DNA of 64,000 nt. Origin: Marsupella aquatica. Taxonomy: Eukaryota; Plantae; Marchantiophyta. The notes below the pieces were generated by a model. That model saw nothing but the letters and a program-made list of their open reading frames with translations. It was not told the DNA's origin and did no database searches. Positions within the stretch are counted from its first letter, which is position 1. Each line of letters starts with the position of its first letter. The stretch covers positions 15,158,645 to 15,222,644 of the forward strand of contig OZ316893.1 of assembly GCA_973895155.1 (NCBI GenBank), given 5' to 3'. Position numbers and translations under genes: made by a program. Of this stretch, positions 2,320 to 59,066 are shown piece by piece.

Positions 2320-4676
2320 TGTGACAGGGCCCCAAACCTGGTAGTAACTTAGTAATGACTTATAATTGCGTATATAAGTAGAAAGACAACTAGGTGTAGC
2401 AAAAGTGTTTGGATTTTCAAATTTTAATTTTTTATTGGTTTAATAAATTGATGCGGCAACCGGAGGCCGGAGTTAAGAGGGGTGTCAAGCGGTGATGGAT
2501 GACAATGGAGCCATTGAGGGGTACAAGGAGGCCAAAAGACAGCCCAAGGACTTGGAGGGCAAGGTGTGGGCATCTCGGATGGGTGGAGGCTGGCCGGAGG
2601 CTCCACATAAGGCGCAAAATGGGAAGAATGATCAAAATATAGAATACGTTGAAATTTAAAATAGACGTTGTTGTGCTAGTACTATTCCAAACATGGTCAT
2701 GTTTGGATTCATTTTGAAGCCCTGAATGAGCCCCATGCAAAACTGGGATTTCCTAGTTGATATTAGGTCTGTATCAAACTGTGGCATCTTGAGGGACCTC
2801 AAGGCCCGTAAAACAACAAAACTAGACAATCTTGGAGTAGTGATGGTGGGAGGGCCGTTAGAAGGAAGGGGCTCCCACATTTTCCTTACTCACCCATAGT
2901 CTCCCACATTTTCCTTCCATATCCGTAGTCTCCCAGAGTTTCCTTCCTCATCCGTAGTCTCCCACATTTTCCTTCCTCACTCCGGGCCCCCACACTTTCT
3001 TCCTTCACTTTTTCTCTTTTCTCACTCGTATGTACGGACCCTGGTCCTACAACCATCAGATTTTTTACCATCTTAGAATCAAGAGTTTACGGGCTTTTGG
3101 AAAGAGCTCGCCGAGCCAATCCAATGATGTGTCACATGGCCAAAATAGAGCTAAGATGAAGGAGATAGGGTTTAGGGTTTAGGGTTTTTTGAGAATATGG
3201 GAGTTTTGAGGCTGTACGGACGTCCGTACTACAAGATGTCCCGGCTTTCCAAGGGAAGGAGGAAGTAGCAACACCTACAAGGACCGTGATCTGTGTTTTG
3301 AAAAGCCAGGGTGGTGTGTTGTACGGATGGAGAGGAGGGAGACGGTGCCCCAATTATGATAAAAACATAAACAACCGTATCTCGACCGTTTGACCTCTGT
3401 TTTGTGCGTTGTTTATGGAGCCGTGATCAGGAAGAGCAAGGCTCCTAAGATATTTTATCAGAAGTGAATATTAAGAACATTTTAGTTTTGACAATTGTTT
3501 GGGGCCCCTCCTTTTACGGTGGACTGGTGGTGGCAATAAAGAGGATAGTAGGCCATACGGATGTTAGCCGTATGGATTATCATTTCCAACACATCTAAGA
3601 ATGGTCAACTCACGGGCTTGGAAGGAGTTTGAGGAGCCAGTTCCGGCAAGGTGTGGCGCTCCCCAAACGGAGCCAAAACAAATAAGTTATGAGCCCAGGA
3701 GTTTTGGTAGTTTTACGGATTGAGACCCCCGTAACTCGGCCATTTGGGATCCATTTTGGGAGCCGTTTACGGATCCGTGATCAGGAGGAGCAGGGATGTC
3801 CAAGGATCTCCTCAGGGGAGTAGTTTGAATTATCTTAGGTTTTGACCATGGTAGGGCTCCCTCACTTTTCACGGACTACGGATTGTAGCTGGCACCGTCA
3901 AAGGCACAATTAGTTCCATAGTTAGGTTAGGGTTCTATGGGGCATGTGTGTGCCGCATGTTTTAGATTAGTGGATTTTATGAATAGGGTTTAAGCGGCGC
4001 CGCTAGTGTAGCCGCCATCGTTGTGACCCCGTGAGGGATGCTTTGGTGTGGTTGTAGTATTTAGGAGGGAGCCCCATAGTGAATAGTGGGGGAACTCAGT
4101 CTAGTTTTGAGTGTTAGCTTGTAGCATAGAGAGGAAAGTCAGTTGGAGTAGTGAGGTGAGAAGTATTCATTGTCCTAATGAGGCAGGAGTTGAGTAGATG
4201 GTAGGAGGCCGGGTTGCTCATGCTATGTATTACTTTTTCCCCAAAAGATATGGATTTAGCTTGACTCTGCAAAGTTTGTTACGTGTTATGATCTCGTTTC
4301 TTTCATAGTTGTGTTCTTCTCGTAGCCGTTTTGGTGTATTCCTTGTGAAAGGACCCACTAAGTGGATTCTTGAAAGAAGTTACTTTGCAAGGTCTAGTCG
4401 GCCTTGTGAGTGTGAGGAGTGGTGACAGCACTCCACTAGAGACCAAGAGGAAAATAGAGAGTGCAGACCATGGGACTTGATAAAATGAAGGGTGAGCCAA
4501 TCGGCAAACTTGATAAAAAAAATGCAATTTGGGGAGCGAAAACAAATCTACTCATTCCTAGCATGATAAAGTCTAAATAGCGTTCCTCCATGTCCCTATG
4601 ATGCAATTAAAATGGTATTGGTTGTGAAGAAGTGGAAATATATGTACTCAGGGGTTTCATTTCCACAAAAATGACA
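2320..4676 (+). mobile_element. Degenerate solo LTR of the giant-LTR gypsy family, short variant without the ORF
   Basis: Starts TGTGACAGGGCCCC (the family LTR starts TGTGACGGGGTCCC) and ends ...ATGACA. 3030-4600 aligns to the reverse complement of 6360-7450 (e.g. GCGGCGCCGCTAG.GTAGCCGCCATCGTTGTGACCCC, GGAAAGAGCTCG). Flanks CATGG/CATCA match only 3/5. Confidence 0.7.
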
Positions 4677-6297: not shown

Positions 6298-9200
6298 TGT
6301 CACTTGCCTATCCAACGATTAATATGTGCAAACCGTACTTTTCTTTGCTCAAACCGTTGGTATCGTATTACGGGGTCGTGGAGGGACGCTATTTGGAGGA
6401 TTTCCACACCTAAGGATGAGTATGTTTGATTCCGCTCCCGGAAGTGTACTTTTTGATCAAGTCTACCGACTGGTCTCTCCGTTTTTGATCAAGTCCAAGG
6501 GACTGGTCCTACCATCTACAACTCATGCCCACCGGGTGAGTGCTGTCACCACCCCCCTCTCATGGACAAGCATACAAACGTTTACAATAAGGTTTGAACA
6601 CTAGTGACAAGGGCAAATGTTTCCACAATGAAACCGACCACATGCACTAGGGGAGGAAAACAAACAACAGAAGCAACAACAAGTGACACACAAAATATTG
6701 GAACCTCAAGCCAAATCCATATCTCTTGGTGTTTCCCATAACACATGCAAGGGCAACCCGGCCTCCTGCCGTCTGCCCAACTCCTGCCTCCCGGGGACAA
6801 GTGCTACGTTCTCCACCTCACTACTCTGGCTTGAATTTCTCCTAATCGGTGCGCTACAAAAGCTACTCAACAGCATCAAAGCACTACGTTGAGTTCCCCC
6901 CCAAACTACTTTGGGGCTCTCCCCCTAAATACCGAAAAAACCACACCAAAGCACCCCTCATGGGGTCACAACGATGGCGGCTACCCTAGCGGCGCCACTA
7001 AAACCCTGCACTAAGAAATCCCTAAACTAAAAAGGCATGCGTCACACACATGCTGCTAAAACCCTAAACCCTAAACAAGGGGCCGACGGTGCCTTCGACG
7101 GCGCCCCAACTGTACTCCGTGAACCCTGAAATTGCAAGGCACCCCACAATGGCTGAAACTAGGTGCCCTATCAACTGTACTTTTGAGCTCACCCTTGGAT
7201 AGCCCTTCTCCTCCTGATCCCGAATCACTCAGCCGCACTCGCAACGGACATCGGACGCCTGAGTTATGGTCGTTTCCGTATCGAGAAAACACAATTTTGT
7301 CGGGCCATAACTTGCTCATCCTGACTCTGTTTGAGGAGCGCCGCCTCTTGTTGGAATCAGCTCCGCGAGCTCTTTCCAACGAGCCCGTGAGTGACCCCTC
7401 ACAAAAAATTTGGAAATCCAGAGGCCGTACAACCACATCCGTACGACTATCTACTCCTCCTCTTCTTCACTCTCGGTGCCCTGGCTTGTGCCCCGTGAGT
7501 GGGCCTCCTCTTCATCACTCACGGGAGTGAGTGCCACCTCACTTTTCTTCTTCTTTATTGGGGTACTCTTCGTGCTGCCGCTCCCTTGCTTCCTCAAAGT
7601 GGCCAAGGCCTGCCACGCCTTGATGTACCCCTCACCAATGGTGTCCTTCCATAGGGTAGCCTCTTCTCCGGACCGCAACTCCAACGGTAGAACTTGCCCT
7701 GTGGCCATGGGAGTCCCGGGGGTGACAGACCTGGGTGGCATCCCCGTACTGACCTGAGCCTCCCGTAACGATTTCCGTACCTCCCGGAGCTTCTTCTCCA
7801 AGCCCTTGCTCTTCTCTTGACTCTTCTTGGCTCCATCCAACAAGGGCCCATACTTCCCACTAACCTCCTTCACCACCATCTCAATAGCCTGGGAGATCAA
7901 ATCCGGGGAAAGTGTGGAGCTAGGTGTGCCGAGGCTCTTCCGTTTCCCAAGACTCAAGGCCTCACTCCTCTTTGCTCGTGTCTCAAAGGCGGCCACCTGA
8001 CTCCGTAGTGCTCCCACCTGGTTTCTCCACTCCACCACTTCTCCAAAATTCTGCTTCTCTTTGGCCAATGGTTGTCTCAACGCTCCCACCTCTTCTGCTT
8101 CCTTGGCCTTGGTGGACAAGGCTCCCTTCAAGTTGGAGATCTCTACGTGAGCTGCTTGGAGAAGCTTAACCTTCTCATGAATGGTCCCCTCCTTGGCCTT
8201 GATCACCTCCTTCAGAGACAGGGTACTCTGCTCTAACGTCTCTACTCTGGCTGAGGCGTGCTTGAGAGAATCTCTCAATGCGTGGATTAGCTTGAGTCCC
8301 TCATGGACTCCCTCTCTGAAATCCCGTAGCTCTGCCAAGTAAACATCCGGAATGTTGTAGACCAGGGGCTTTTTCGGATCTCCCACGAGTGATTCAAGCC
8401 ACTCCAACGTGTAGTCCTCATCCTGGTTTTCTTCTCCTCTATCTTCATCCCCACCGGCCGACGATGATTCCTCCGTGAGCTTCCCTATAATGGTAGTGGC
8501 AATACTCCGGATCTCCGTGGTGAGAGATGATCTCGTGTCTTCCTGTCCCGGGGAACCAATCAACCCTTCTGCCCTGGCCAATACAAATGACCCCATCAAA
8601 TGTACAGCCCCACCTGGTTTCACACTCCCGGGATCCGCGGCCAACAGCTTCTTCAACCCGTAGTACCACCATCCGTACACATGGGCTGGGTGGTTCTTGA
8701 TGTCCATAGCTACCACGAAATGCTCTTCACTCACCACCCCGGATTGCACGTTGCCAAGGACCCGTTGATGAACCTTGGCCAGGAATCCCTTATACTCAAC
8801 ATCCTTGACAGCGGAAAGAGGGATGGCAGTGGTGGAGGTGGGATTAATCACCCAAGTGGCCACCATCTTCAACGTGAGTTCTCCCCTAATGTGCCGAGGT
8901 GTGAATGAGAATTTCTGATTCCCCAAAAATAGCAGCCTAGCCAACTCCACATGGGGCACTACACGTTTGAGACATTCAAAGTAGATTCCCTCCGTTCGTA
9001 ACTCCATCCCGACCTCAATGTCCCAGCTCTTCCCCGGAGGGATGGTAATCTCCACCTTCATGAATTCTGTAACCCCAGTGGCTTGGAAAATATTCCGACA
9101 ATCCTCCATCACTTTGGCGGAGGTCTTGGGATAAATTCGACGAAAAATCCTCCTACCCACCGGTGTGGAACCTGCTGCCAATCCCGTGCTCATCGTAGCT

Positions 9201-10264
9201 TCTCTCTCTTCTCTCTCCCTTGCAATCAAAGTCTCCACGTAGTCACGGTAAGCAGCCTTGTATCTCCGAATGCGTGCCACACTAAACTCCGGTTGATCTA
9301 GCATTCATGCATCCTGAAATCAAATTCTCAATCACCAAATCCCGTCACCCGTAGCAATGTCAATTCCCTGGCCCGAAACAGCCCCCGTAGCCCAATTAAT
9401 TTATTTCTCTCAATCCCCTCCGTCGTCACTCCATGTTGCTGTCATTAATGCCCGGACAGTCCCCGCAATCCCCCATGAGTGAGCCTTGAGAAGAATTGGA
9501 GAGAAAGCTCAAATAATTGTAACATAAGGAGAAAGCTTTCCGCAATAAGGGAGAGAAACTCGAGTTTGCTTTCGGCAAGAGAAGGGTCGTGTGAAAAGGA
9601 GAAAAGAGGGGAGAGAAAAAACAACGAAAACCCCCCCGGGAGCAGCTTTTTGCCTTGCGCCCCGGAGCCCTCCTATGTCCCGACTCGCGGGAGTCCCCCT
9701 TCCTCGCAGCTCGCGGCTCGCGGCTCACTCGCGAACGCTTCCCCTTCCTCGCACGGCAGCTCGCGGACCTCCTTAGGAGGGATTTATTTAAAAACCCCCC
9801 ATACTCCTCACTCGCGGCAGCTCGCAGCAGCTCCCGCCCTCTGCAGGGCTCGCAGCTCGCTCGCGGACGCTTCCCCTTCCTCGCACGGCAGCTCGCGGCT
9901 CGTAGCTCGCAGCTCGCCCCTCGCAGAAGGATTTAATGGGGGTTTAATTAAACCCCCCATACTCCTCCAGTCCTGCCTGAGTGTTGCTTTAGAAGGGGTG
10001 TTACCAAAAAATTAAAAATGCTTATTTCCCGGACTTCCTTACCTTCCCGGAAAGTCACAATTTTAAACCCCCCCAGGTTTTTGCCCCATAATTAACCCGG
10101 GTCTAGACAAAACTGTTGGGGTCTCCGACTATCCCGAGATGCTTTAAAAAAACTTTATAGATTTAAAGAACATTTAAAAAAAACTCGCGTCTATGGGCTT
10201 ATTTATTTACAGGTGTCTTGCTGGTGACACTAATGGTGATTTACCGTGGCGGGACCCCGTCACA
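6298..10264 (-). repeat. Giant 3' LTR (3967 bp) containing a protein-coding ORF
   Basis: Starts TGTGACGGGG immediately after the PPT and runs to the TSD. A homologous unit stands alone with its own TSD at 37512-41892. Confidence 0.88.
7451..9304 (-). CDS. LTR-encoded 617-aa protein: globular N-terminal region (possibly related to Athila ORF2/env-like accessory proteins), acidic linker, long coiled-coil, basic/acidic tail
   Basis: Intact ATG-to-TAG ORF, same sense as pol. Colinear homolog at 38599-40460. Heptad-rich segment LRDSLKHASARVETLEQSTLSLKEVIKAKE..., and a PIKKKK NLS-like motif near the C-terminus. Confidence 0.85.
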   Translation of the reverse strand: MLDQPEFSVARIRRYKAAYRDYVETLIAREREEREATMSTGLAAGSTPVGRRIFRRIYPKTSAKVMEDCRNIFQATGVTEFMKVEITIPPGKSWDIEVGMELRTEGIYFECLKRVVPHVELARLLFLGNQKFSFTPRHIRGELTLKMVATWVINPTSTTAIPLSAVKDVEYKGFLAKVHQRVLGNVQSGVVSEEHFVVAMDIKNHPAHVYGWWYYGLKKLLAADPGSVKPGGAVHLMGSFVLARAEGLIGSPGQEDTRSSLTTEIRSIATTIIGKLTEESSSAGGDEDRGEENQDEDYTLEWLESLVGDPKKPLVYNIPDVYLAELRDFREGVHEGLKLIHALRDSLKHASARVETLEQSTLSLKEVIKAKEGTIHEKVKLLQAAHVEISNLKGALSTKAKEAEEVGALRQPLAKEKQNFGEVVEWRNQVGALRSQVAAFETRAKRSEALSLGKRKSLGTPSSTLSPDLISQAIEMVVKEVSGKYGPLLDGAKKSQEKSKGLEKKLREVRKSLREAQVSTGMPPRSVTPGTPMATGQVLPLELRSGEEATLWKDTIGEGYIKAWQALATLRKQGSGSTKSTPIKKKKSEVALTPVSDEEEAHSRGTSQGTESEEEEE

Positions 10265-12545
10265 TAGCTCCTCTCTTAATTGCGAAGCGTCCCCGCGAGC
10301 ACCATACTCTTCCTCCATGTAGTATTTCTTTAGGCGTTCTTGATTGATCCGTGTGTTGAGTAGTTGCCCCTCCAACGTCTTGAGTTAACTGAGCCGTTGG
10401 AGTAGACAGCGTCTACTACGTAGGGCCCCATCCAACGTGTATGCAACTTCCCGGGGAAATGCATGAAACGACTGTCGTAGAGGAGTACCAAATCTCCCTC
10501 CTCAATGGACACACGATGGAGACAGGAATTGTAATGTGACTTCCGTTTGCTTTGCTCCTGCTCCGTACGGGTCAAAGCCTCTTCTCGTGTCTCAGTGAGT
10601 TGCTCCAACTGTTGGATCCGTGCAGCTACACTTCTTTCTTCCCCTTCCCTTTCCCGTGTTAGGATCCGAATGGTGGGCACTTCAAATTCCACCGGCACAA
10701 GAGAGTGTTGTCCAAACACAAGGAAATAGGGGTTGTGGCCCGTGGTAGTCTTGTGAGCCAGGTTGTAGGCGTAAGTAGCAGCCAACAACTTCAAATCCCA
10801 ATCTGTCTTGTGAGCTGATACCGTCTTGTTAAGAATCTTGCCCATGATCCCGTTTGCTCTCTCAGTGAGCCCGTTGGCTCGAGGATGGTATGGAGTGGTC
10901 TTCCTATGTGAGATCAAGTAGTTCTCCGTCAGACGTTCAATCGTATGATTGAGAAAGTGAGTACCCCTGTCACTCACCAGCTCCAATGGGGGACCAAATC
11001 ATGTAAAAATCTGCTCGTACAAAAAACGTGCTGTGGTGTTGACATCATCCTTGGCAGTGGCTCGGGCCTCCACCCACTTTGTGGCATAGTCCGTTGCAAG
11101 AATGATGTAGCGCTTCCTCCCTCTTCTAGTGATGGGAGTGAAGGGGCCAATGAAATCAACCCCCCACTTCTCAAAGGGTGCAAGAGGAAGTATGGGCACC
11201 AAGGGGTGGCGTGAGGAGGGCCCTGGTTTGCCTTGACGCTGGCACGGATCACATCGTTGGATGTACCGGTGTACATCCCGAAAGAGAGTTGGCCACCAAT
11301 ATCCAGCATCTAGTATTTTCCTTGCGGTGGTCTCCCGTGCAAAGTGGCCACCAGCTTCCTCCTCATGTAATGCTGCCATGACTGTACGTATCTCAGCTTC
11401 CTCCAAACAACGACGAAGACGGCCATCCATGCCGTACTTGTGAAGTACTCCCCTCACAAGCAAGTAGGGACCTGTCTTACGTAAAAACACTGCTGCTCTC
11501 TCCGGGCCCAAACGTGAGGGAACTCTCGCCGTACGGAGAAATTCCAAAATTTCTCCATACCAAGTGGTGGCCTCCGTAATCACGCTGAACACTTCTTCAT
11601 CCGGGAACCGATCATCAATCTCCTGTGAGTCAGATGCTCCCTCAATACGGGAGAAGAAGTCTGCATTGCTGTGACTCTTCCCCGATCTCACTCTCACCTC
11701 ATAGTTGAACTCCTGCAGCAACAAAACCCAACATGCAATTCTCCCGGACAGATCTGGCTTGTTGACCATGTATTTCAAGCTGTTGTGATCCGTGTGGAAC
11801 ACAACCTTGTATCCCAACAAATAATGACGATACTTTTTACAAGCGTAAATGATACCAAGTGCCTCCCTATCGGTGGGTGAGTAATTCTTCTCTGCCGGGG
11901 CCAACTGCCTACTGGCAAAGTAGATGGGATGGTCCCTTCCTTCATCATCTAACTGACTCAAAATGGCACCGATGCAAAATCCTGATACGTCTACATAGAC
12001 ATGGAACTCCTTATTCCAATTGGGCGTAATGAGTACGGGAGCCTCTAGCAAACGTTTCTTCAATTCATCAAAAGCAGCCTGTCGGGATGGAGTAGGTTCA
12101 AATTCACTTCCCTTCTTCAACATGGAGGTGAGTGGCATGGCTACCTTGGCGAAGTCTTTGATGAAGCGTCGATAGTATCCAACACACCCCAAGAACCCTC
12201 TCACTTCCTTTACGTTCTTGGGAAATGAGACTGCTACCCACACGACCACCTTCTCACGGTCAACTTCAATCCCCCGTGCAGACACTTTGTGGCCCAATAG
12301 GATCCCCTCCTCAATTCCAAAGAAACATTTCTCAGGATGCAGCTTCAAGCAAGTCTCTCGGCACCGCTGAAAAGTCAACCGTAAGTGTTCCAGATGCTTG
12401 ACTCGTTTGCCATAGACAGCAAAGTCATCAATAAAGATCTCCAAGAACCTGCGTAAAAAGGTCATGAAATATATTCATTATGAGCCGCTGGAACATGCCA
12501 GGGGCATTGCACAACCCAAAAGGCATTCTACGAAATGCAAAAATT
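10241..12545 (-). pseudogene. pol: Gypsy pol remnant (RT C-terminal half, RNase H, integrase)
   Basis: AFRRMPFGLCNAP, FLEIFIDDF (RT), YVDVSGFCIGA (RNase H), H..GGH/CDPCQ zinc finger, WGVDFIGP, LVSDRGTHF, GLTERAN, GKLHTRWMGPY. Defects: frameshift near 12460, TGA at 10999-11001, frameshift near 10385. Confidence 0.95.
10265..10280 (-). promoter_or_regulatory. Polypurine tract of the gypsy element
   Basis: Minus strand reads ATTAAGAGAGGAGCTA directly before the LTR start TGTGAC. Confidence 0.75.
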
Positions 12546-13102
12546 GCAGCTCGCGGCTCGCGGCTCACTCGCGGACGCTTCCCCTTCCTCGCACGGTAGC
12601 TCGCGGACCTCCTTAGGAGGGATTTATTTTAAAACCCCCCCATACTCCTCACTCGCGGCAGCTCGCAGCAGCTCCCGCCCTCTGTAGGGCTTGCAGCTCG
12701 CTGGCGGCTCACGGCTTGCTCGCGGACGCTTCCCCTTCCTCGCACAGCAGCTCGCAGCTCGCAGAAGGATTTAATGGGGGTTTAATTAAACCCCCCATAC
12801 TCCTCCAGTCCTGCCTGAGTGTTGCTTTAGAAGGGGTGTTACCAAAAAATTAAAAATGCTTATTTCCCGGACTTCCTTACCTTCCCGGAAAGTCACAATT
12901 TTAAACCCCCCCAGGTTTTTGCCCCATAATTAACCCGGGTCTAGACAAAACTGTTGGGGTCTCCGACTATCCCGAGATGCTTTAAAAAAACTTTATAGAT
13001 TTAAAGAACATTTAAAAAAAACTCGCGTCTATGGGCTTATTTATTTACAGGTGTCTTGCTGGTGACACTAATGGTGATTTACCGTGGCGGGACCCCGTCA
13101 CA
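12546..13102 (-). repeat. Truncated 5' LTR (first ~557 bp only)
   Basis: Near-identical to 9706-10264 and fused directly to RT coding sequence at 12545. Confidence 0.9.
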
Positions 13103-32429: not shown

Positions 32430-32749
32430 TGACACTTAGATATTTACTCGTAGGGTCTAGAGTAACGACTAGTACTGTAGTTTCAAGGTTGCTAGGTTAA
32501 CTGTGTTACATACTATATACACAAGCAAGACGTGCTCACTTGTGAAAAGAACCTAGGCTCATTCTTAGGGAACCACTTGAGAGATACTCAGAGCTTGTGT
32601 CCGTGTGAACTTGGTATGGTCAACGGGCCTAGACTACAATAAAGCTTTTGTGTGTTCCCGTGTACATAGTCTCATCAGAAATGAACCACGTATTTGTTTG
32701 TTAGATTGGCACATGTACGTGTCGTTGTGAGCAATGTCTTTACTCAACA
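32430..32749 (+). mobile_element. Diverged solo LTR of the copia family
   Basis: TG...CTCAACA with perfect TSD CTTTG. Aligns to the reverse complement of 52573-52993 (GGCTCATT, CCACTTGAGAGATA, TGTGTGTTCCCGTG, GAACCACGTAT). Confidence 0.85.
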
Positions 32750-34282: not shown

Positions 34283-37200
34283 AGTGCCTCTCAGTGTGCC
34301 AGCTGAGGGGCTGTGCGCGCTTTACCGTATGCACACTTGTGTGCGCAGTCGGAAGCGCGGCTCCTGGTGTGGGCGAATTCATCGTTCTTTGTCAGAAGAA
34401 ATACTCTGATAAAGTCCGCTGGACTCCCCTGGAAACTTCGCTGAACGGAAAATGGTTTCAGAAATGTAGCTTCTGTGAGTTTATTTTGATGCGAAAACTG
34501 TCTCTGTTCCATGGATCTGGGCAGTCTAATAGACCATATTGCATAGATGCAGAGTTTTATGTTGCCAAACTACGCCATTTGCATGGCTTCCGTGTCGAAA
34601 AGATTTTCCCAAAAATATTTCAAGTTAAGGCGCAAGTTTGTATCGTAATTCTGGTTGCTATATTGTCACGTATTGGTTAATCTTTAGTGGTGGACGCGAA
34701 TGTGGAGTCCCTCCTTCCGATCGGTGTGGTCTAAGTATTCATCATGTCGTCGAACGAATATGGAGCCCCCCCTTCAGATTGGTATGCTTTTAGTATGCAT
34801 TATGTCGTCGTTGAAACTCCTATAGAGGAATTGTAGTTGGTATTCTGGTGGGTCCACCCGTGTAGTCGCGGCGTCTCACTCGTTTTCTTTTCGACTGAAA
34901 GTTCTATCTGTCAGATCGCCTTATTTTACTTTTTAGGCTTCATACGTTACACATTACTTTGAAAAAGTGGTCGATTTCCAGAACGTCGCTCGTGAGGTTG
35001 GTTTTCTTTGTACAATGAACTGTAATTTAGAGGAAGTCTGTTCCCCTGCTAGATTCATTGCCCGTTATACCCCTACTATTACTTGCAGAGTCTTTCCGTA
35101 ACCGTGGGTCGGTTCCTTACTTTCATCTTTGTCAAGTCAGTGTTCATGACGTTGGACATTGTCAAATTAGGTCTGAATGTCACTGGAAAGAGGGTCTACC
35201 CTGAATTGGCAATCCAATCCATTCTGGCCTTTCCCATCCTACCAGGGGGGAAACCTCGGTTGTGAGCCGAGATTGCTAAACCCAAGTCTTCTGATCCATA
35301 GGGATAGCTTCATTGTAAGGGCTTTAAAGGCCAGATCCGGAGCATGGGATACTTGTGTATCCAACAACTTCTCGAAGTATTATCATCTTTGCCATATGCG
35401 TAAGATTATCACAAATAATAAATTTCACTCACTATGATTTATTATTTCTCTAGTATGTTTAGGTATGCACAATTGTTTACTAGGTCTGGGCCAAGGCCAT
35501 ACAATTTTAGGCAAATCAATAAGGCCGGGAGCAAAGCTTTTACCCCTAGTATCAAAGCCATGCGATAAGTACTCTTCTCTGATCATTTTTTTAATGTTGT
35601 GTTCAGAGTGAACCTGATTTCCCTTGTACTCTTCCCATATCCCATATGAGTCGCAGAAATGCAAAACACGTGTACGAACAATAGCCATTTTGGGGGATCT
35701 CAGTAGCCGGTCGTAGGAAGTAAGGAGTTTAGTGTCTTTGATTTAGAATTTCTAGAATGATAACCGTTAGATTTAGAATGTGTTACACATCAACGTTTAG
35801 GGTATAGAAGAATAACAAGAAAGACCAATTATGCAAAGAACCCTGAAGGATTCCATACCCTTGGATTGAACCCTAAACTCGGATGGGTTCTAGCCAAACA
35901 CACAGACTTGCTTGGATAATTCTGTCCAAGAAGTAACCAGAAGTGGCCAAATCACAAAAGTTCTGATTTGTTCTCCCAATACCCTTCTGACTCAACATGT
36001 TTAATTTTATCCTGTTTTTTTCTACTTACTAAGGAAAGATAAAGTTTAGGGTATAGTCAAACCTTGTCAAACCTTTATGGTAAATGGAGTGCGTCTACAA
36101 AGAGTGTACTTTGCTCAACTGTCTGAAACAAAAAGAATTCAATTTTATAAACCCACTATAGTTTTCCTACACACCACCTGGAGATTCTAAGGCATTGCTG
36201 ATCGTTGCATTAGTGATCATTTACAAAGTCTACCACTTGGCAGTTGTTGAAGAATCTTGCTTTTGATAGAACATTGTTGTTGTTGCAAAGAGTGTTGCAA
36301 GTAACTTTCCCACTGTTGAGTTGCCAGACTTTAATTTACAGGACTGCTCTTATAGAATCTAGAATGTTCCTCTTTTTCACAAGAAGCTTCAAATAAGTTT
36401 TCTGCTACAAAGTTACCAGTGGGAGTTTGGGAGGGCCAGGAATCTCCTATGTGCCCTATGAACCCAGGTTACCCCTCCATGGAGCCAAAGGGGTTGGATT
36501 GCATGGATGATTGACAACTATGTAGGTTATTTATGGATTTTAGTTTCCTTAAAGCTCTGTCCAGCCAGTAATAAAATTTGAGACCACACCATGGAGGCTG
36601 TGCATTTCAACATATGACCTTGATAGACATGTGTCTTTACATGTAGCTTAGCTTCTGGGGGAAGAGGAGGACCTAGAGGAGATGATGGAGGAGTTGAGCA
36701 TGACACCTATAAAGTTTTGGTGAGTACTTTTTAGGGGTTGCCACTTATCCACCTCCAATGCTATGATGGAGGTTTTGCATGAGGAAGTTGTTGTTCATGC
36801 AGATTCACAACATGATCATGTAGTTCAATGACACCCTCATCAATGAAATGTCTCCAAAGGTTGGCATCTGCAGTGCCATTTCATCTTTGAAACACTTTGC
36901 AAAGGGGATTTTTTATTGTTTTGCAGAGGAGCACCCACAGAATCATATGTCAAGAAGCACATGGAAGTCAACTGCCAACAAGGCCTTTTAGGGTTGTTTG
37001 CGTCACTTGATTGCACACATTGGACTTGGAAGAATTATTCAATTGAAAAACAAGCAAAACTTCAAGACAAAGATGGGAGAAGTGTAGGGATAATTTTGAG
37101 AGAAGGAAAGGGAACTCAATTGTGCTAGGTGTCACTTATGAGGTCATCGATGGCAATTCCTACCAGCTGTCTTATCTTCTCACAAATGGGAATTACCGTG

Positions 37201-37511
37201 ACATGACCAAATTTATGAAAATTAGCAGTACAAGGAAAAAGGAAATGGTTTGTCAAATGGCAAAAAATCTCTTGCAAGGATCTGCTGCAGGCCCAATTTG
37301 CCATGGTACACAATCCTTCTTGGCCGAGGAGCAGAATAAAATGAGTGTGGATTGGAAGGGAGCTATAACTCTCCACAGTATGATTGTGGAGGACAAGGAA
37401 GATGACAGCATCTTGGACAACAAATGTCATCACTTTGGACTTGAAGTGGCTGCACCCACCTCATCCCTCACTCTCTATTGCTAGGCTCACCTGCAATATG
37501 GCCCATGTTTG

Positions 37512-40500
37512 TGTCACCTGCTTATGAAATGATTTACACGATAAATACGTATTTTCTCCTACTAAAATAGTTTGTTATCATATGACGGGAACGTGGAGGG
37601 ACGTTATTCAGATTCTATTGCATGTAGGATGAGTATGTTTATTTCCGCTCCCGGAAATATAATTTTTGATCAAGTCTATCGACTAGCCTCTCTGCTTTTG
37701 ATCAAGTCTCATGGATTACACCACACACCCTCCTGCTGGTCGCTAGTGGGGTGCTGTCACCACCCCCCCTATTCACATGGATGACCAATCCGTGCAAGCA
37801 TTCCTTAGACACTTCTTGGGGAAAGAACACAATCGTGACACAGAAAAGATAACGCCACACCAAGACTTCAGTAATCAAACCAAATCCATATCTTTTGGTA
37901 ACAAATCGTAACACATTGCAAAGACAACCCGACCTCCTGCCTCACTGGGGCAAGTGCTACACCTCTACCTCACTACTCTGGCTTGATTCCCTCTTTTGGC
38001 TATGAGATAACTTCTATAAACCAACACTAGACTAAGTTCTCCCTAGTTACTCCGGGGCTCTCCCCTTAAATACTGAAAACAAACACACCAAAGCACCCCT
38101 CACGGGGTCACCACGATGGCGGCTACCCTAGCGGCGCCGCTAAAACCTTATCACCAACAGGTAAACATCACTAAACCCTAGCGGTATGTGGCACACACAT
38201 ACCCCTAAACCCTACCTAACTAAGGGACCGACGGTGCTTTCGACGGCGCCCCACAATATCACTCTGTAAATCGCGAAAATATAAGAGGCCCCACAATTGC
38301 TGAAACTAGGTGCCACTCTGATTTCACCTCTGAGCTCTCTCCTGGGTAGCCCTGCTCCCCCTGATCATGAATCACCAAACCGCACCGGAAACGGATATCG
38401 GACGACCAAGTTATGGTCGTTTTAGTTTCACGTACTTACCAACTTCGTCGGGCCCTAACTTACTCATCCTGGCTCCGTTTGAGGAGCGCCGCCTCTTGTT
38501 GGAATCAGCTCCGTGAGCTCTTTCCAACAAGCCCGTGAGTGCCAAATTCTGAAAAGATCAAAAGCAAGAGGTTGTACGACCAAGTCCGTACGGCTACCCT
38601 AGTCCTCCTCCTCCTCACTCACAGTGCCATGGCTTGAGCCTCGTGAGTTGGTCTCCTCATCACTCTCAATTGGAGTGGATACCACTTCGCTTCTCTTCTT
38701 CTTCACCGGGGTACTCTTCCCACTAGTGCTCCCTTGCTTCCTCAACACCGCCAAGGCTTGCCAAGCCTTGATATACCCCTCACCGATGGTATCCTTCCAC
38801 AAGGCAACTTCCTCCCCGGATTACAACTCCAACAGTAAAACCTGCCCGGTGGCCCTGGGAGTCCCTGGTGTCACAGATCTGGGCGTCATCCCTAGTGTAC
38901 CCGTATTGACTTGGGCCTCCCTTAACGACCTACGTACCTCCTTGAGCTTCTTCTCTCCAAGCTCTTATTCTTCTCCTGATTCTTCTTGGTTGCTTCCAAC
39001 AGGGGACCGTACTTCTCAATGACTTTCTTCAGCACCATCTCAATGGCTTTGGAGACCAGGTTAGGAGAAAGCATGGAGCTAGGTGGGTAGGGACTCTTCC
39101 GTTTTCCCAGACTCAAGGCCTCACTTCTCTTGGCCCTAGTCTCAAAGATCCCCAGCTAACTCCGTAGTTCTACAACCTGTCCTCTTAACCTCCCCTTTTC
39201 TCCCGAGTTCTGCTTCTCTTTGGCCAATGCTTCTCTTAGCACTCCAACTTCCTCCGCTTCTTTGGCCTTGGTAGACAAGGCCCCTCTCAAGTGAGAAATC
39301 TCCACTTGAGCCGCATGGAGAAGCTTGGCCTTCTCTTGTATGGCCTCCTCCTTAGCTTGGATCACCTCCTTCATCAACGTGGCACCCTACTGCAATGTTT
39401 CCACCCTTGTGTTGGCCTGCTTGAGTGCATCTCTCAATGTATGGGCTAGCTTGAGCCCCTCATAGATCCCTTCACGAAAATCCCGTCATTCCGCCAAGTA
39501 TACCTCTGGAATGTCGTAAGCAAGGGGCTCCTTTGGGTTCCCCACCAGAGATTCAAGTCACTCCAACGTGTAATCCTCATCTTGGATGTCTACCTCAACT
39601 TGACTGTCTCCCGTTCCTGCTGGCACCTTTGTTAGTTTCCCCAAGATGGTAGTGGCAATGCTGCGGATCTCCGTGGTAAGAGGTGACCTAGCTTCTTCAG
39701 GTCCCGAGGAGGCAATCAATCCTTCTGCCCTGGCCAACAAAAATGACCCCATCAAATGCAACGCTCCCCCTGGTTTCAGACTCTTCGGCTCATTGGCCAA
39801 TAGTTTTGTCAATCCGTAATACCACCATCCGTAGGCATGGGCTGGATATTTTTGAATATCCAGAGCAATTATGAATTGCTCCCCATTCACTACCCCGGAT
39901 TGCACATTACCGAGGACCCGTTGATGAACCTTGGCCAGAAATCCCTTGTCTGCTGCATCCTTGACGGCCGAGAGATGAATGGTCGTGGTGGAGGTGGGAT
40001 TGTTCACCCAACAGGCCACCATTGTCAACATGAGATCCCCGATTATGTTCCGGGGGGTGGATGAGAACTGCTGGTTCTCCAAAAACAAAAGCTTAGCCAA
40101 TTCGGCATGAGGCACCAACCGTTGAATACATGCAAAATAAATCCCCTCCGTGCGCAATTCCATTCGAGTCTCCAGGTCCCAACTCTTCCCTGGAGGGATT
40201 CTAATCTCTACTCTCATGAAGTCGGTGAGCCCGGTGGCTTGGAACATAGCCTTGCAATCTTCCATCACCCAGGCAAAGGTCTTGGGGTAAATTTGACGGA
40301 AAATTTTCCTCGTGACTGGTGCTGGACTTACTGTCGGTCCAATGCTCATTGTTGCCTTTCTTTCTCCTCCCCTCCTCTCAATCAATGTTGCAATGTAAGC
40401 CCGGTATGCCGCCTTGTATCTACGAATGCGAGCCGCACTGAACTCGGGCTGATCAAGCATCCATGCTCCAGGAAAAAATCCCCAATCACAAAATCCCGTC

Positions 40501-41892
40501 ACCCATATCTCGTAGCAAATTTCCAATCCCTGGCCCGAAACGACCCCCGTAACTTGATTAAACACCAGCAATCAAACCTCGGGAAAAACCCGTCGCAAAG
40601 AGCCCGTACTCACTTCACAAAAGCGTCGGATAAGTTCAAGGTGACCGGGTCGGCGAGAGGGGGTTACCCAAGAGCTCACGAAAATAATGGAGTGAGGAAA
40701 GAGGTGGAATGCTTTCGGCAATGTGCGAAGTCATGAAGTGGTTTCGGAAATGCGCGGAGGGAGAAAAAAAAAACCCCTAAAGACAACCCCGTAGCCTCCT
40801 TTCACACTCTAAATTGACCCTCGCAGGTGCACCTCGCTCCCCGGCTGCTCCTCCCGGTTTTGTACTCGCGGGGCCCTTTTGGGGGATTTAACCCCCCCCT
40901 TTTTCCTCCTAAATCCCCGAGCGCCCGACAGCCTCCAACTCGCCCTGGCAGCTCTTGCGTTGGCGCCTGGGCACAACTCCCTATGCAGGGGGCACGACCT
41001 CGCTCCTGCGCCCCCACTCACTGCCTCCCTGCTGCCCTCTCACCTTACTCTCCTACGCCACCTTCACACTCTCACTGCTGGCGGGAGGGCCTTGGGCTCC
41101 CCCGCCACCTGGCCTGCTATCATTATGGAGGGCTTGCCCCCCCGGCTGTCTTAAGCGCCCCGCTCCGTTGCGCCTCGGCCAAGCCTGCCATATGTCGGGG
41201 GGTTTAATTCTCCCCCCCTCTCGCGCTCGCTCCTGGCTCACGGGCTCGCGGTAGCTTATGTACCACCTGGCCTGCTATCATTATGGAGGGCTCGCCCCCC
41301 CGGCTGCCTTAAGCGCCCCGCTCCGTTGCGCCTCAGCCAAGCCTGCCATATGTCGGGGGGTTTAATTCTCCCCCCCCCTCTCGCGCTCGCTCCTGGCTCA
41401 CGGTGCTCCTTTTATATTCGCCTCACGGGCTCGCGGTAGCTTATGTACCCCAGTGAGGATTCCACGTGGCGGCCCCAGGGCTGCCCCTTATGGGGTCCCC
41501 CAAGTGCTCTTATGCAAGGGGGCTCGTCTGCTCCCTGGGTTCCCTGCTGCCGTCACACAAACCCCCCCCCCCTCCGCTTAACACAAAAAATTAGTGCTCC
41601 TCCCCTAGACCTTGCTATTGCGGTCTCAAAAAAAAATGGCCTAAGGGAAACAGGATGTCCGACCATTCTAGCCCTAGTTCCAAGGTCCCAACATGCTTGA
41701 TTGCTGGGGCGCCGTAGGCATCCAAACTATTAGGGTATAAAAGTAAGTAGAGACCTCTGGGGCATAGCAACCTATAAGGACGGAATTAACTCAAAAAAAT
41801 ATTTTAAAACGGCTTATTCACAATGGTTATTTACATGGCACAACCCCACTAAACAACTATCAAGGATTTTCAGTGACGGGAACCCCGTCACA
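37512..41892 (-). mobile_element. Solo giant LTR (4381 bp) of the gypsy family
   Basis: TGTCAC...CCGTCACA termini and perfect TSD GTTTG (37507-37511, 41893-41897). Colinear with 6298-10264. No pol sequence. Confidence 0.92.
38599..40460 (-). pseudogene. Disabled homolog of the LTR-encoded 617-aa ORF
   Basis: MLDQPEFSAARIRRYKAAY... through ...SHGTVSEEED, with a TGA at 39558 where the intact copy has TGG, plus further stops and frameshifts. Confidence 0.9.
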
Positions 41893-42749
41893 GTTTGCAA
41901 TGTGGACACTGCAGATCAAGTGAAGTCAGGATTAATTGAGCATTATTTTGTGGCAACTGAATGCAGCTGGGAATGCAGAGGGAGAAGTGAGTAGTTCATT
42001 GCAAATGGAATGCATTGGGTAGTCTAGGAAACTTTGTAGGAGTACATTTCACAATTATTGGTCATTTCTCAATTATGCAACGTCCTAGGAGATATTGACT
42101 TTGCTGAAATAAATTAGGTGGAAGTTCCACAATTATCCTATTATCTTGCAAGAATCTATTCTTGTTGTTTGTCATCCAACTCGGATTGTATCTCCAAAAT
42201 TCACTTGTATAATGGTGTTCAAAACAATCATTTATTTGATGTGGTTGCAACAAAACAGTAACTCATGGGTCTGTAGTCTGGAAGTAGTCTTGCCCTAAAC
42301 TAAAACAACTATTTTGTCAGAATACAAGTGTGCCATATTGACACATGTACCAATAAAAACATGACAGGTGTCCTATGTCCTAAACAAAAAACAAGTCTGG
42401 CTACTACAGGCGTGTTTAGCAGGCTCACAAACGGGCTGATGTGAGGGCTATGTCATGGAAGGGCTCGACCCAAGGGAAAATCGGGCAATACTGGAAGCCA
42501 GAGTTTGCATAAATTTGGAAGGGCAATAGTGAAGATGGCCTATATAACATGACAATATTTGTTGGGTATATCGCTTCTCCCGGGGCACCATGCACATGTA
42601 AATACCATACAAAGTAGTCAACAACGTCTATTGTAACCAATAATAAAATCTAGATTGTTGAAATTTGATATTGGATTGAGGTATCTACTATTGAAGACTA
42701 TGGCTATGTGGCCTTGTCTTCAACAACCAGGTTCTAGCCATCCTTGTCT

Positions 42750-44767: not shown

Positions 44768-45068
44768 TGTTAGAGACGGGGTTAGAGACTGACTTGATTT
44801 CCCGGCGTTAGTTACTCTGGGTTACATTAGGATGAGATCCACTTAGTATAGGCCCACACATCTCGGCCCCTTGGGGGGGGGGGGTATAGGTTGGAGGGAG
44901 GGCTTTCTCTTCCTCATTCTTCACATGTACTTTCTCATGAGCTATGGATCCCTCAAGAGTTTCTCCATCGTGGTGTCTTGTTGGTGCAGTGTGAGATTGA
45001 GTGCTATCATGTTCCGCATTGTTGTCTAGTGTGGAGCCGACGGTTCTGACATCACTCGCTATTTAACA
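44768..45068 (+). mobile_element. Small solo-LTR-like repeat, copy A
   Basis: TGTTAG...TTAACA termini. About 150 bp is the inverted counterpart of 46440-46590. TSD not convincing. Confidence 0.5.
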
Positions 45069-46389: not shown

Positions 46390-46636
46390 TGTTAAACACA
46401 AGTGTGCACTCAATCTCCTAACCCACCTAAAAACGGCCATGATGGAGAAACTTACAAAAGATCCCATAGCTCATGAGAGAGTACATATGAAGAATGAGGG
46501 AGAGAATGGTCTCCCTCCAACCTATACCCCCAAGGGTGACCAAGATGTGTGGGCCTCAGTAGAATGGATCCTATCCTTATCTAATGAAGGGTTAACTAAT
46601 CCTAGTGAGGCCAAACTAACTTGGGAACTAACTACA
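46390..46636 (-). mobile_element. Small solo-LTR-like repeat, copy B (inverted relative to copy A); right end approximate
   Basis: TGTTAA start. Shares GCACTCAATCTC, GATGGAGAAACT, CCATAGCTCATGAGA and CTCCCTCCAACCTATACCCCC with the reverse complement of copy A. Confidence 0.5.
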
Positions 46637-52572: not shown

Positions 52573-52993
52573 TGTTGAGCATAGACGACGATCGCAACGG
52601 CAAGCCCATGAACCATCCAACGCACAATAGTCGACACAAGAGATACGTGGTTCACCTCCTTGAGGCTACGTCCACGGGAACACACAAGAGAGCTTTACTG
52701 AACTCTAAGCCCGTCGGCTATACCGAGTCTCCACAGTGTAAGCTCTCCCTATCTCTCAAGTGGCTCCATAACAATGAGCCTTGGTTCTACCTCTCCAAGC
52801 ACACATGCCTCTTATGATATAGTGTGCAACTTAGTTGTACCTAACCACATAGTTGTACCTAATCACGTAGTTGTACCTAACCACATAGTTGTACCTAATC
52901 ACGTAGTTGTATCTAACCACGTAGTTGTACCAACCCACGTTGTTGTACCAACCACGTCATACCTAACCTAGACGTAAGAGTAAATACCCAACA
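52573..52993 (-). repeat. Copia 3' LTR
   Basis: Direct repeat of 58646-59066, preceded on the minus strand by PPT AGTCAAGGGGAAGAT (52994-53008). Confidence 0.97.
52832..52957. repeat. 18-bp tandem array (~7 units) in U3 of the copia LTR; also at 58905-59030
   Basis: TAGTTGTACCTAACCACA / TAGTTGTACCTAATCACG units. Confidence 0.9.
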
Positions 52994-53183
52994 ATCTTCC
53001 CCTTGACTCTGGTCTAGGGGAGAGTAATACTGCCAATGTATATGATCCCTCAGCGGGAAGTTCTGGACAGAACCAAACCGGTTTCCCTCTCTAACTAGAG
53101 CAAACCAGAACTAAGCCGTAGCCTAATACATAGGAATGAGGAAGAGCATATATCAGTAATTACAATGAATGTTTAAGAAAACT

Positions 53184-56100
53184 CTACTTGTGATGCAATT
53201 GCAAAACCTGCAATACGTCACGGTGTCTAGAGAAACTCTCCAAAGGAATCACTTTGGTAAATGCGTCAGCCGGGTTGAGTTTACCATCAATCTTGACTAG
53301 CTCAAACAAATTATCAGACACAGCCTGCCTGATAAAATGGTACCTGACGTCAATGTGCTTCACTCTGCTGTCCATCACCTGGTTCACAGCAAGGTGGAGC
53401 GCACTTTGACTATCACAATGGAGCTTCACATTCCCCTGTGGCAATCCCATTTCAGTGATAAGTCTATCCAACCAAATCGCTTCCTTTGTTGCTTCCGCAG
53501 CTGCAACATACTCCGCTTCTGTAGTAGACTGAGCAATACACTTCTGCAAAGTAGACCTCCAACTTATGCATCCACCGCCAAGTGTGAACACGTATCCTGT
53601 TGTTGATCTCCTTCGGTCCAAATCTTGTCCATAGTCAGAATCTACATAGCCAATCAATGATCTAGCATTCTTTGCATTCGCATCAAATAAAAGACCATGA
53701 TCCACGGTACCCTTCAAGTACCTGATAATCCACTTCACTGCTTCCCAGTGTACCTTCCCTGGATTCGACATGTACCTGCTCACCTTGCCCATAGCCATGG
53801 CAAGATCAGGTCTAGTGCAAGTCATCAAATACATGAGACTCCCCACTGCCTTGTCATATGGAACCTTTGACATCAACCCCTTCTCTGTGTCATCCGTAGG
53901 ACAGAACGCTGATGATAACTTGAAGTGTGGAGCCAACGGGGTACTTACTGGCTTGCTATTCTCCATGTTGAACCTTGCAATTACCTTCCTCGCATAACTG
54001 CTCTGTGTCAACCATAGCTTGCCAGCCTCCAAGTCCCTAGTGATCTCCATACCCAAAATCCTCTTAGCTGGCCCTAAGTCCTTCATCTTAAACTCTGCAC
54101 TAAGCAGTGCCTTGAGCTTAACAATCTCAGACCTATCCTTGGCTGCAATTAGCATGTCATCCACATAAAGTACTAAAACAATGAACCCAAAGACAACATT
54201 CTTCACCGGTTTCAAATACACACAAGGGTCAAATACACTTCTGTGAAAACCTTGTGACCGAATCCAATCGTCAAACCGCTTGTTCCACTGTCTTGGTGAC
54301 TGCTTCAACCCATACAAGGATTTCAGAAATCTGCAAACCAATTCCTCCTGTCCTCTCTTCACAAAACCTAGCGGTTGTCTCATGAAGATCACCTCTTCCA
54401 ATGTGCCATAGAGGAAAGCTGTGACAACATCCATCTGATCTAGGAGCAGACCAAACATTACAACAAGTACACACAATAGTCGTATTGTAGAGTACTTAGC
54501 AACTGGTGAGAAGACCTCATTGTAATCCACACCTTTCTCTTGTGTGAATCCCTTTGCTACCAATCTAGCCTTGTAGACCTTCGATCCACCTCCTATGGAA
54601 TTATCCTTCAGCTTGTAAATCCACTTGCTGTCCACCACTTGCTGACCCTTAGGCAGCTTAACAAGCTCCCAAGTTTTGTTGTCCTTTAGTGACTGCATCT
54701 CCGTTTGCATTGCTGCAGTCCACTTCTGCTTCTCCTTTGAAGCACTTGCCTCATGAAATGAAGAAGGTTCTCCTTCTTCCAAAATTAACGCATCACCCTC
54801 ATCATCAGCTGTAAAATCATCCTCTTGCAGTTGAGATGAATCAACCCACTGTCCATACCTTGATGGAGCGCGTACAGTGCGACCAGATGTTCTTCTAGCC
54901 GATGACTCCGGTTGATCTGCGTGTGCTGGTACAATTTGAAGCTCAACAGCATCCACTTGCTGCTCACCAGCATCAACAAACTCCTCTGGTTCCTCTGGCA
55001 CAGGAACCAGCTCCATAATTGGAGCAACTCCTTCTCTCCGGTCATGCACCTCATAACCAATCTCCCCCTCAACGAGATCCGGGATATGAGATTTTCCTTT
55101 GTCAGTACGGGAGACCTGAGTATTCTCCCCCTCCTTCAATAATCTGGATTCATTGAAGGAAACATCCCTACTGACAACGAGCTTACAGGCAATAGGATCC
55201 CATAGCCTATAGGCTTTCACACCACTCTGGTACCCAAGAAAAATACATTTTCTGGAGGTAGGATCCAACTTGGTCCTATTCTGCTTTGGTGTGAGAGCAT
55301 ATGCATCACTTCCAAAAATTACCAAGCCATGATAGTCTGCTTGCCGCTTATAGCGCATCTCAAACGGCGTTTTGAAATTGATAGCACTAGAAGGAGAAAG
55401 ATTTACCAAATAAGCTGCGGTATTGACAGCTTCTGCCCAAAATTCTTGTGGTAAACCTGATTGGCTCAACATACTCCGTGACCGCTCCAACAGTGTCCGA
55501 TTGAGCCTCTCAGCGACACCATTCTGCTGCGGAGTATAAACTGTGGTGAGATGGCGAGTTATCCCCTGTTCTGAACAGTACTCTTCAAATTCCATTGAAG
55601 TGTACTCCCCGCCGTTGTCTGACCTCAGACTCTTCACCCTTGTATCCAAACACTTGATCGTGTTTCCAGTCCGATTCTCCACCTGGGCCTTCCACTTCTT
55701 AAAAATGGACAAGACATCAGACTTATGCGTCATGAAATAAATCCACACAAATCTTGAGTAATCATCAATAAATGATACATAATACAACTTTCCAGAGTGT
55801 GAGGGAGTCGGGGATGGACCCCACACGTCACTATGTATGTACTCAATAACCGCTTTGGAACAATGAGTTCCAACACCAAAAGCACGACGATGCTGCTTTC
55901 CAAGAATGCAATACTCACAAAACTCTAATTTACAAGATTGCAAATCAGAAATGAGTCCATTCTTCCGTAAGATAGCCAAACCCTTCTCACTCATGTGGCC
56001 TAGCCGTGAATGCCACAGTTGAGTCATCTCCTCGTGAGACTTGGTTACATTGGCCTCTCCACATTTTGTATTGCCCTGTAACACATACAAATTCTTTTGT

Positions 56101-58630: not shown

Positions 58631-58643
58631 TGCTCTGATACCA
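58631..58643 (-). promoter_or_regulatory. Primer binding site, initiator tRNA-Met
   Basis: TGGTATCAGAGCA, 2 bp inside the 5' LTR boundary. Confidence 0.95.
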
Positions 58644-58645
58644 AT

Positions 58646-59066
58646 TGTTGAGCATAGACGACGATCGCAACGGCAAGCCCATGAACCATCCAACGCACAA
58701 TAGTCGACACAAGAGATACGTGGTTCACCTCCTTGAGGCTACGTCCACGGGAACACACAAGAGAGCTTTACTGAACTCTAAGCCCGTCGGCTATACCGAG
58801 TCTCCACAGTGTAAGCTCTCCCTATCTCTCAAGTGGCTCCATAACAATGAGCCTTGGTTCTACCTCTCCAAGCACACATGCCTCTTATGATATAGTGTGC
58901 AACTTAGTTGTACCTAACCACATAGTTGTACCTAATCACGTAGTTGTACCTAACCACATAGTTGTACCTAATCACGTAGTTGTATCTAACCACGTAGTTG
59001 TACCAACCCACGTTGTTGTACCAACCACGTCATACCTAACCTAGACGTAAGAGTAAATACCCAACA
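58646..59066 (-). repeat. Copia 5' LTR
   Basis: Direct repeat of 52573-52993, followed by TSD GGGTG. Confidence 0.97.

Follow-up and report, generated by a model that had tools for sequence, protein, structure and literature searches.

In a 64,000-nucleotide stretch of the genome of the liverwort Marsupella aquatica (contig OZ316893.1 of assembly GCA_973895155.1, positions 15,158,645 to 15,222,644; hereinafter the window, in whose own numbering coordinates are given), we observed that long terminal repeats (LTRs) of a Ty3/gypsy retrotransposon family contain a complete accessory open reading frame (ORF), and we consider it highly probable that this is a gene maintained by selection inside a Ty3 LTR. 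The intact version of the ORF (7451..9304, minus strand) encodes 617 amino acids and lies in the same sense as pol within the 3' LTR of an internally deleted element, denoted here E1 (6298..13102, minus strand). A broken copy of this ORF (38599..40460, minus strand) lies in a solo LTR (37512..41892, minus strand). Altogether, three related LTRs were recognised by self-comparison of the window plus sequence inspection.

Purifying selection on the ORF

Alignment of the two ORFs yields 611 codon pairs (after exclusion of one gap codon, the five stop codons and the terminal stop), with 72% amino-acid and 76% nucleotide identity, and the four peptides that the first-pass annotation quoted as common to both, including GWWYYGL, are indeed found in each. 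The 433 differences are distributed over the codon positions as 103/90/240; the abundance of third-position differences, already noticed in that annotation, exceeds the values in all 200 neutral simulations with transition and CpG bias (146+-9, maximum 168). At non-CpG sites, 57 of the 158 fourfold degenerate positions (36%) differ compared to 59/572 (10%) non-degenerate ones, and for transversions alone, the respective values are 18% and 4.5%. The non-synonymous substitution rate divided by the synonymous one (dN/dS), by which the first-pass annotation proposed to judge selection, is 0.195 (95% bootstrap interval 0.15-0.24) at kappa 1 and 0.286 (0.23-0.35) at kappa 3.3, that is, 0.20-0.29 over this range of kappa, with the upper bound of 0.35 being well under 1; the underlying values are 0.63-0.86 for dS and 0.17-0.18 for dN. 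Individual segments give 0.17-0.31, with the exception of an acidic linker (amino acids 276-300), for which the interval includes 1 at kappa 2-3.3. The signal is specific to the reading frame: among the other five frames, three yield 1.3-1.8, and, as expected, a value of 0.30 is obtained for the antisense frame with the same third positions. This frame-specific low dN/dS supports the earlier proposal that the protein was under purifying selection in active lineages and is functional for the element rather than captured junk.

Part of the observed dN reflects decay after insertion because, in simulations, the five stops in the solo copy require approximately 130-160 neutral substitutions; thus, dN/dS in the active lineages is probably lower than measured, with a wide error. 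Comparison of the intact copy with contigs from four public runs of two studies revealed 12 ORF substitutions in the 40 rows shown (there are 514 more), 9 of them non-synonymous and 3 synonymous, which is the neutral ratio and fits selection that acts on replicating lineages, not on inserted copies. At most of these sites, E1 stands apart from nearly all of the contigs, which suggests that E1 is itself drifting. Among the 12 indels shown (25 more exist), 10 are non-triplet indels in the non-coding part of the LTR, one is a triplet indel in the ORF, and one is in pol. Since both ORFs occupy the same place in homologous LTRs, the divergence between the copies (dS 0.6-0.9) arose inside the element.

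The first-pass annotation also contrasted the ORF with a much less conserved upstream sequence. The upstream parts of the two LTRs are indeed barely alignable, the alignable portions being limited to ~30 nt at the beginning and ~100 nt immediately preceding the ATG, and a forced alignment yields 50% identity with 580 gap columns; faster-than-neutral upstream change does not follow, however, because dS of 0.63-0.86 is sufficient to make neutral DNA unalignable. Run contigs cover 9458-10198 thinly, which we did not take as a sign of fast upstream evolution because neutral divergence could fall under the 85% threshold. On the other side of the ORF, a conserved non-coding segment (38075..38598, minus strand), likely consisting of U3 cis-elements, is 78% identical to 6940-7450, and the 400-500 nt downstream of the ORF as a whole show 76-78% identity, equal to that of the ORF. 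Such equality was named in the first-pass annotation as grounds for abandoning its claim, which nevertheless stands given that this segment is itself constrained: because the downstream segment is equally conserved, the ORF cannot be told apart by nucleotide conservation alone but is distinguished by its codon pattern. We rejected a coding function of the segment on account of frame-breaking indels (1, 2, 3 and 7 nt) and the lack of codon periodicity (38/30/41).

The elements and their LTRs

The solo LTR (4,381 bp, TG...CA, with the termini TGTGACGGGG...GGTGACA) is flanked by its own 5-bp target site duplication (TSD), CAAAC, at 41893-41897 and 37507-37511; there is no repeat between its two ends, and neither a polypurine tract (PPT) nor a primer binding site (PBS) nor pol is present beside it. 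The claim that this LTR keeps the gene holds insofar as an ORF copy is present there. That copy is broken by five in-frame stops (codons 302, 326, 359, 436 and 544, beginning at 39560, 39488, 39389, 39158 and 38823) and one 2-nt frameshift (near codon 503, near 38955), and also differs from the intact copy by two in-frame indels (9 nt and 3 nt); the full protein cannot be made from it, and the gene survives there as a pseudogene only. Directly beside the LTR end, at 37047-37484 (plus strand), there is a weak Pfam match to Plant_tran (PIF/Harbinger-type, E 0.004), apparently part of an older DNA transposon that served as the insertion site of the LTR.

E1 (6,805 bp, 5-bp TSD ATCAA) consists of a truncated 5' LTR of 557 bp (12546..13102) fused directly to the middle of the reverse transcriptase (RT), a pol remnant (10330..12545) with the C-terminal half of RT, one RNase H and integrase in the Ty3 order, a PPT (10265..10280, ATTAAGAGAGGAGCTA followed by TGTGAC) and, immediately after it, the 3' LTR of 3,967 bp (6298..10264), all on the minus strand. 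The Ty3/gypsy assignment is borne out by the TG..CA LTRs, a TSD of the 4-6-bp class, the PPT preceding the 3' LTR, and the Pfam matches RVT_1, RT_RNaseH (E 1e-35), Integrase_H2C2 and rve in pol (10330-12474), in the RT-RNase H-integrase order. Only ~65 nt separate the end of integrase from the 3' LTR, and the ORF is contained wholly within the latter. By the established mechanism of reverse transcription, a PPT directly before a unit would lead to the copying of the whole unit to both element ends. The PBS, gag and half of pol have been lost from E1, and the ORF is intact. The first 345 bp of the 5' LTR are identical to the 3' LTR (94.8% overall), and the truncation lies before the ORF; an element with two full ORF-bearing LTRs was not seen.

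The pol of E1 contains a single RNase H stretch, with ~100 aa up to the integrase zinc finger, and a full relative, P0003, likewise has one RNase H; no additional RNase H (aRH), the mark of the Tat clade (Ogre, Retand), was seen after RNase H in E1, in which the N-terminal part of pol is missing, or in P0003, without a search with an aRH-specific profile. Identity of the pol remnant to its matches is 73% for an unnamed polyprotein and 56% for the nearest named ones, elements of Riccia sorocarpa; in a tree of 25 rows chosen from 120 listed, with no outgroup and no reference Athila, E1 groups with three Riccia rows with a support of 99/99, and the angiosperm matches (34-40% identity) form a separate clade. 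A metagenome scan with P0003 recovered one locus from 27 candidate stretches, with no match to the ORF or LTR in its 1.57 kb of LTR. In hand-picked contigs, the depth ratio of the ORF to pol is 2.2 (X3), 2.0 (X4) and 1.8 (X1), and that of the ORF to flanks is about 80-190; X2 was left out, two further X1 pol contigs give 1.1-1.3, and depth is not the same as copy number. The family appears to be abundant in the public-run contigs. A related element, L001, possesses gag and a PBS-like site, TGGCGCCG. Between this site (~1570) and gag (~2299), at 1992-2240 (plus strand) of L001, there is an intact ORF for an 82-aa ELF1/ELOF1-like elongation factor (Pfam Zn_ribbon_Elf1, E 3e-28), apparently a host gene captured into the leader of a Ty3 retrotransposon.

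The third LTR (2320..4676, plus strand; 2,357 bp; TGTGACAGGG...ATGACA; flanks CATGG/CATCA, 3/5 match) is a related solo LTR with neither the ORF nor the GCGAG cluster described below. It shows 65-72% identity to the 3' ~1.1 kb of the other two, and no ORF homologue was detected in it by tblastn or with a hidden Markov model. At the place expected for the ORF, it holds a second copy of the conserved downstream module, and it contains 29-bp CT-rich tandem repeats at 2872-3005. This LTR is a candidate for a non-autonomous or ancestral LTR type.

All three LTRs share a TATA-like motif, GTATTTA, at 38067..38073 in the solo LTR (562 bp from its 3' end) and 6926..6932 in the 3' LTR of E1 (635 bp from the end), both on the minus strand; in the third LTR, the distance to the end is about 600 bp. 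TATTTAA being a TATA variant, this motif likely serves as the main promoter, in which case the ORF would belong to U3. Just upstream of the motif, there are telomere-like TTTAGGG/TAGGGTTT repeats (7020-7080 and 38180-38215, minus strand), and the third LTR contains a TAGGGTTTAGGGTTTAGGG run (3170-3188, plus strand); these repeats may have a telo-box role.

The predicted protein and the upstream array

The 617-aa protein consists of a globular N-domain (aa ~57-270), the acidic linker, a coiled coil (aa ~318-520), and a C-terminal part with a basic KKKK cluster at 584 followed by an acidic tail; the ORF has no introns. There is no transmembrane helix of the kind expected in an env-like eORF (the top 19-residue Kyte-Doolittle mean is 1.09). 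Homologues, 14 found by HMMER search and two, one of them new, by alignment search, are fragments plus five Calypogeia fissa proteins; a word-based search with the full ORF gave nothing at E<=0.001 among 7,996 candidates, and sequence searches of PDB gave chance or coiled-coil matches only. The predicted fold weakly matches VANC21 (PDB 9LNK) over 189 residues with 11% identity, the sole match to a solved structure that spans the domain, VANC21 being a DNA-binding anti-silencing protein; no publication on the VANC21 structure was found in our literature search. Foldseek against PDB and BFVD gave nothing at E<=0.001, and a second look with VIA was limited to the 322 Foldseek chains, VANC21 not being among them; an AlphaFold model of the full protein from the single sequence was uninformative (pLDDT 41.7). 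Atlas neighbours (0.79-0.86, with few shared features) belong to clusters that point to Transposase_32, Transposase_28 and plant mobile domain (PMD) families. There is no Pfam match of the ORF to PF20167, PF04195 or PF10536, and hhalign against three PF20167 (Transposase_32) segments yielded a probability of 0.2 and a score of 14.2, under the ten best of 30 column shuffles, with shallow input.

Upstream of the ORF, both LTRs contain GC-rich blocks with recent tandem duplications spaced at 132-185 bp: in E1 (9650..9964, minus strand), repeats at 132-158 bp and, in the solo LTR (40800..41499, minus strand), a duplication of ~158-160 bp. The E1 block holds 17 sense-strand copies of the GCGAG motif, and the solo block holds 12. 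In these upstream regions as a whole, the GCGAG motif lies on the sense strand in 18/18 cases in E1 and 12/13 in the solo LTR, with 2-3 expected and with 0/500 dinucleotide shuffles reaching this level; there are 0.6 copies per kb elsewhere in the window and a single copy in the ORF-less LTR. Palindromes of the G-run/AT/C-run type, present in both upstream regions, have seven matches in the window, all seven in the two ORF-bearing LTRs. The CpG observed/expected ratio is 1.10 in the E1 block, 0.70 in the solo block and 0.54 in the ORF. Thus, GCGAG/CGCGAG clusters occur in non-coding tandem repeats of the very element that encodes the protein, in the manner of VANC motif arrays, and are a candidate target of the protein; among the three LTRs (n=3), the cluster accompanies the ORF and is absent without it. 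Ahead of the ATG, both copies have a CT-rich leader, which allows for a second promoter. A possible splice acceptor before the ATG (TTTCAG in E1) was discarded, being not conserved in the solo LTR.

Possible functions

The interpretation that we favor, with a probability of about 0.45, is that the ORF product is a nuclear DNA-binding regulator with a predicted VANC/PMD-like fold that acts on its own LTR. Under this scenario, DNA binding would be the task of the N-domain and oligomerisation that of the coiled coil; the likely target of the protein would be the GCGAG cluster in the upstream part of its own LTR, and binding there would counter silencing or activate the element; the array would turn over by tandem duplication with the motif kept, like the VANC target arrays. 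Residing in U3, upstream of the main TATA-like motif, the ORF would be copied by reverse transcription into both LTRs and would be left in solos by LTR-LTR recombination. Full elements would likely express the ORF from their 3' LTR, or else a second promoter, located in the GC-rich/CT-rich region that precedes the ATG, would serve. The protein could also be provided in trans by intact copies that are solo or truncated, E1 being an example. A more specific version of this regulator scenario, in which a VANC-like, sequence-specific anti-silencing protein and its target array are packed within the LTR, making every LTR, solos and dead truncated copies included, a self-contained cassette capable, in trans, of demethylating and reactivating the family, seems to us possible but not likely; the protein is not VANC by sequence or host element, but it may work in a VANC-like fashion.

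Several observations weigh against a VANC-like regulator. At E<=1, Pfam detects no domain, DUF1985 included, in either ORF copy or six homologues (HMMER filters drop weak matches), the identity to VANC21 is 11%, and VANC is described as dicot-specific (PMC13547354, accessible part), whereas this is a liverwort retrotransposon. Furthermore, GCGAG was chosen from these same sequences, duplication inflates its counts, and repeats of host-factor enhancers would show a pattern like that of VANC target arrays. The domain plan is the same as in the additional ORF proteins of Retand and Athila, which are nuclear and have SMC-like coils (PMC7264820; PMC11963269, accessible part), the Atlas leads point to the Athila/Tat extra ORF (eORF) families, and large LTRs commonly carry repeat arrays and CpG-rich blocks (PMC6317226 and PMC4029996, accessible parts). 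It is quite conceivable, then, that we are dealing with an Athila/Tat-type eORF, with a Transposase_32/28-like N-domain and an SMC-like coiled coil, involved in integration targeting, nuclear import or particle/RNA handling rather than anti-silencing, and that GCGAG represents ordinary U3 host-factor enhancers; the VANC21 fold match and the joint presence and absence of the motif cluster and the ORF argue against this view.

Other explanations appear less plausible. That the protein restrains its own family, through copy-number control or as a repressor with a VANC/PMD fold, so that ORF-bearing LTRs are kept for limiting host damage, would be compatible with the silencing of transposable elements by the host PMD proteins MAIL1/MAIN (PMC5418596, accessible part), with the protection of hosts by LTR-encoded Sag of endogenous mouse mammary tumor virus (MMTV; PMC11998498, accessible part) and with the intact ORF in the otherwise degraded E1; it is nonetheless improbable, considering that the solo copy decayed, that the predominantly non-synonymous differences between E1 and other copies do not make inserted copies look host-selected, and that the family appears abundant. 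Even less credible is a captured host gene or passenger, with the dN/dS signal predating capture or reflecting RNA or other constraints. The ORF lacks a gag-pol-like or known-family match, the Calypogeia homologues are annotated as unnamed proteins, and the ELF1 gene of L001 indicates that capture happens in this lineage; however, the divergence built up inside the element, the signal is frame-specific and holds at non-CpG sites and over the whole length, and introns are lacking, so this explanation is already largely refuted. Finally, we give hardly any credence to the possibility that, instead of being an LTR with a gene, the unit is an element in its own right or else belongs to an element with short LTRs and an internal eORF: although the 5' LTR of E1 is truncated ahead of the ORF and no element with two full ORF-bearing LTRs was seen, the PPT abuts the start of the unit just ~65 nt after integrase, the TSD of E1 encloses both repeats, the solo LTR carries a separate TSD, with no repeat between its ends, and, in X3 and X4, the depth relative to pol is about 2:1.

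Other features of the window

A Ty1/copia element at 52573-59066 (minus strand) has two LTRs of 421 bp that are identical to each other, as well as gag (56748-57500) and a pol frame of 1,090 aa, and is, judging by its sequence, a very recent insertion; older relatives of its LTR are at 5240-5494 and 32548-32693. A fragment without a Pfam match at 21489-22558 (plus strand) resembles, as we read it, the zinc-knuckle/REL endonuclease end of a non-LTR retrotransposon. A ~1.4-kb tandem duplication (87%) with smaller ~140-bp repeat arrays spans 15063-18888, and an inverted repeat pair (44808-45004 and 46406-46599; 75% over ~200 bp, about 1.4 kb apart) is possibly a DNA transposon remnant.

Comparison with known systems

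Extra ORFs are a familiar feature of plant Ty3 elements, and published accounts place them in the internal region, for the most part between pol and the 3' LTR (PMC7264820; PMC6317226, PMC11963269, PMC11728184 and PMC3485330, accessible parts), and their role is a long-standing open question (PMC7264820). The Athila sense eORF (Transposase_32/PF03078), Ogre PMD-A and the antisense Transposase_28 of Retand resemble the present case, an apparently aRH-less, non-chromovirus Ty3 lineage, in being selected accessory ORFs with a globular domain and a coiled coil, and they are the nearest Atlas clusters; they differ in position, being located ahead of gag or in the stretch from pol to the 3' LTR (PMC7264820; PMC11963269 and PMC3485330, accessible parts). 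The liverwort ORF, by contrast, has no Pfam match or transmembrane helix and lies wholly inside the LTR, the ~65 nt after pol leaving no eORF of the Athila type there, and hence survives in solos, unlike those eORFs. Retrosat2, RIRE3 and RIRE8 (Tekay) share very long (>3-kb) LTRs, many solos and an orphan ORF0 with Ka well below Ks (PMC3485330, accessible part), but ORF0 is described as upstream of gag-pol and not part of the LTR, and these are grass chromoviruses. The MMTV sag gene is likewise a whole protein-coding gene inside an LTR that is retained in endogenous copies (PMC11998498, accessible part), but this is a vertebrate retrovirus, and the product is an unrelated transmembrane protein with an immune role. 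Our search by title or abstract, which most of the subscription literature lay outside, so that absence from print is not proven, found no plant precedent for ORFs inside LTRs or for retrotransposon anti-silencing proteins.

With VANC of the VANDAL Mutator-like DNA transposons, the protein shares its status as an accessory protein encoded by a transposable element, the weak predicted fold match, a coiled coil, through which VANC is predicted to oligomerise (PMC13547354, accessible part), and the accumulation of a short motif in non-coding tandem repeats, which vary from one relative to another (PMC5735166, accessible part). The differences are the GC-rich candidate motif GCGAG in place of YAGTATTAY and the location in a Ty3 LTR instead of a VANDAL/Mutator DNA transposon. 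PMD-A is Gypsy-encoded (PMC5418596, accessible part), and PMD and the VANC DUF1985 are structurally alike (10.1101/2024.09.27.615353 and PMC13547354, accessible parts). A gene inside the LTR implies that solo-LTR formation, the usual route of retrotransposon removal, would leave the accessory gene behind, and an intact ORF, an adjoining candidate target motif and an ORF-less relative as a control, in a liverwort lineage with a tractable model, make a compact test system. If the VANC-like fold is real, retrotransposon eORFs become connected with PMD proteins and VANC, and the fold reaches back to bryophytes; should the LTR indeed be an anti-silencing cassette, VANC-type anti-silencing would extend from dicot DNA transposons to retrotransposons and bryophytes, suggesting that the extra ORFs of Athila, Ogre and Retand share the same ancient fold and job.
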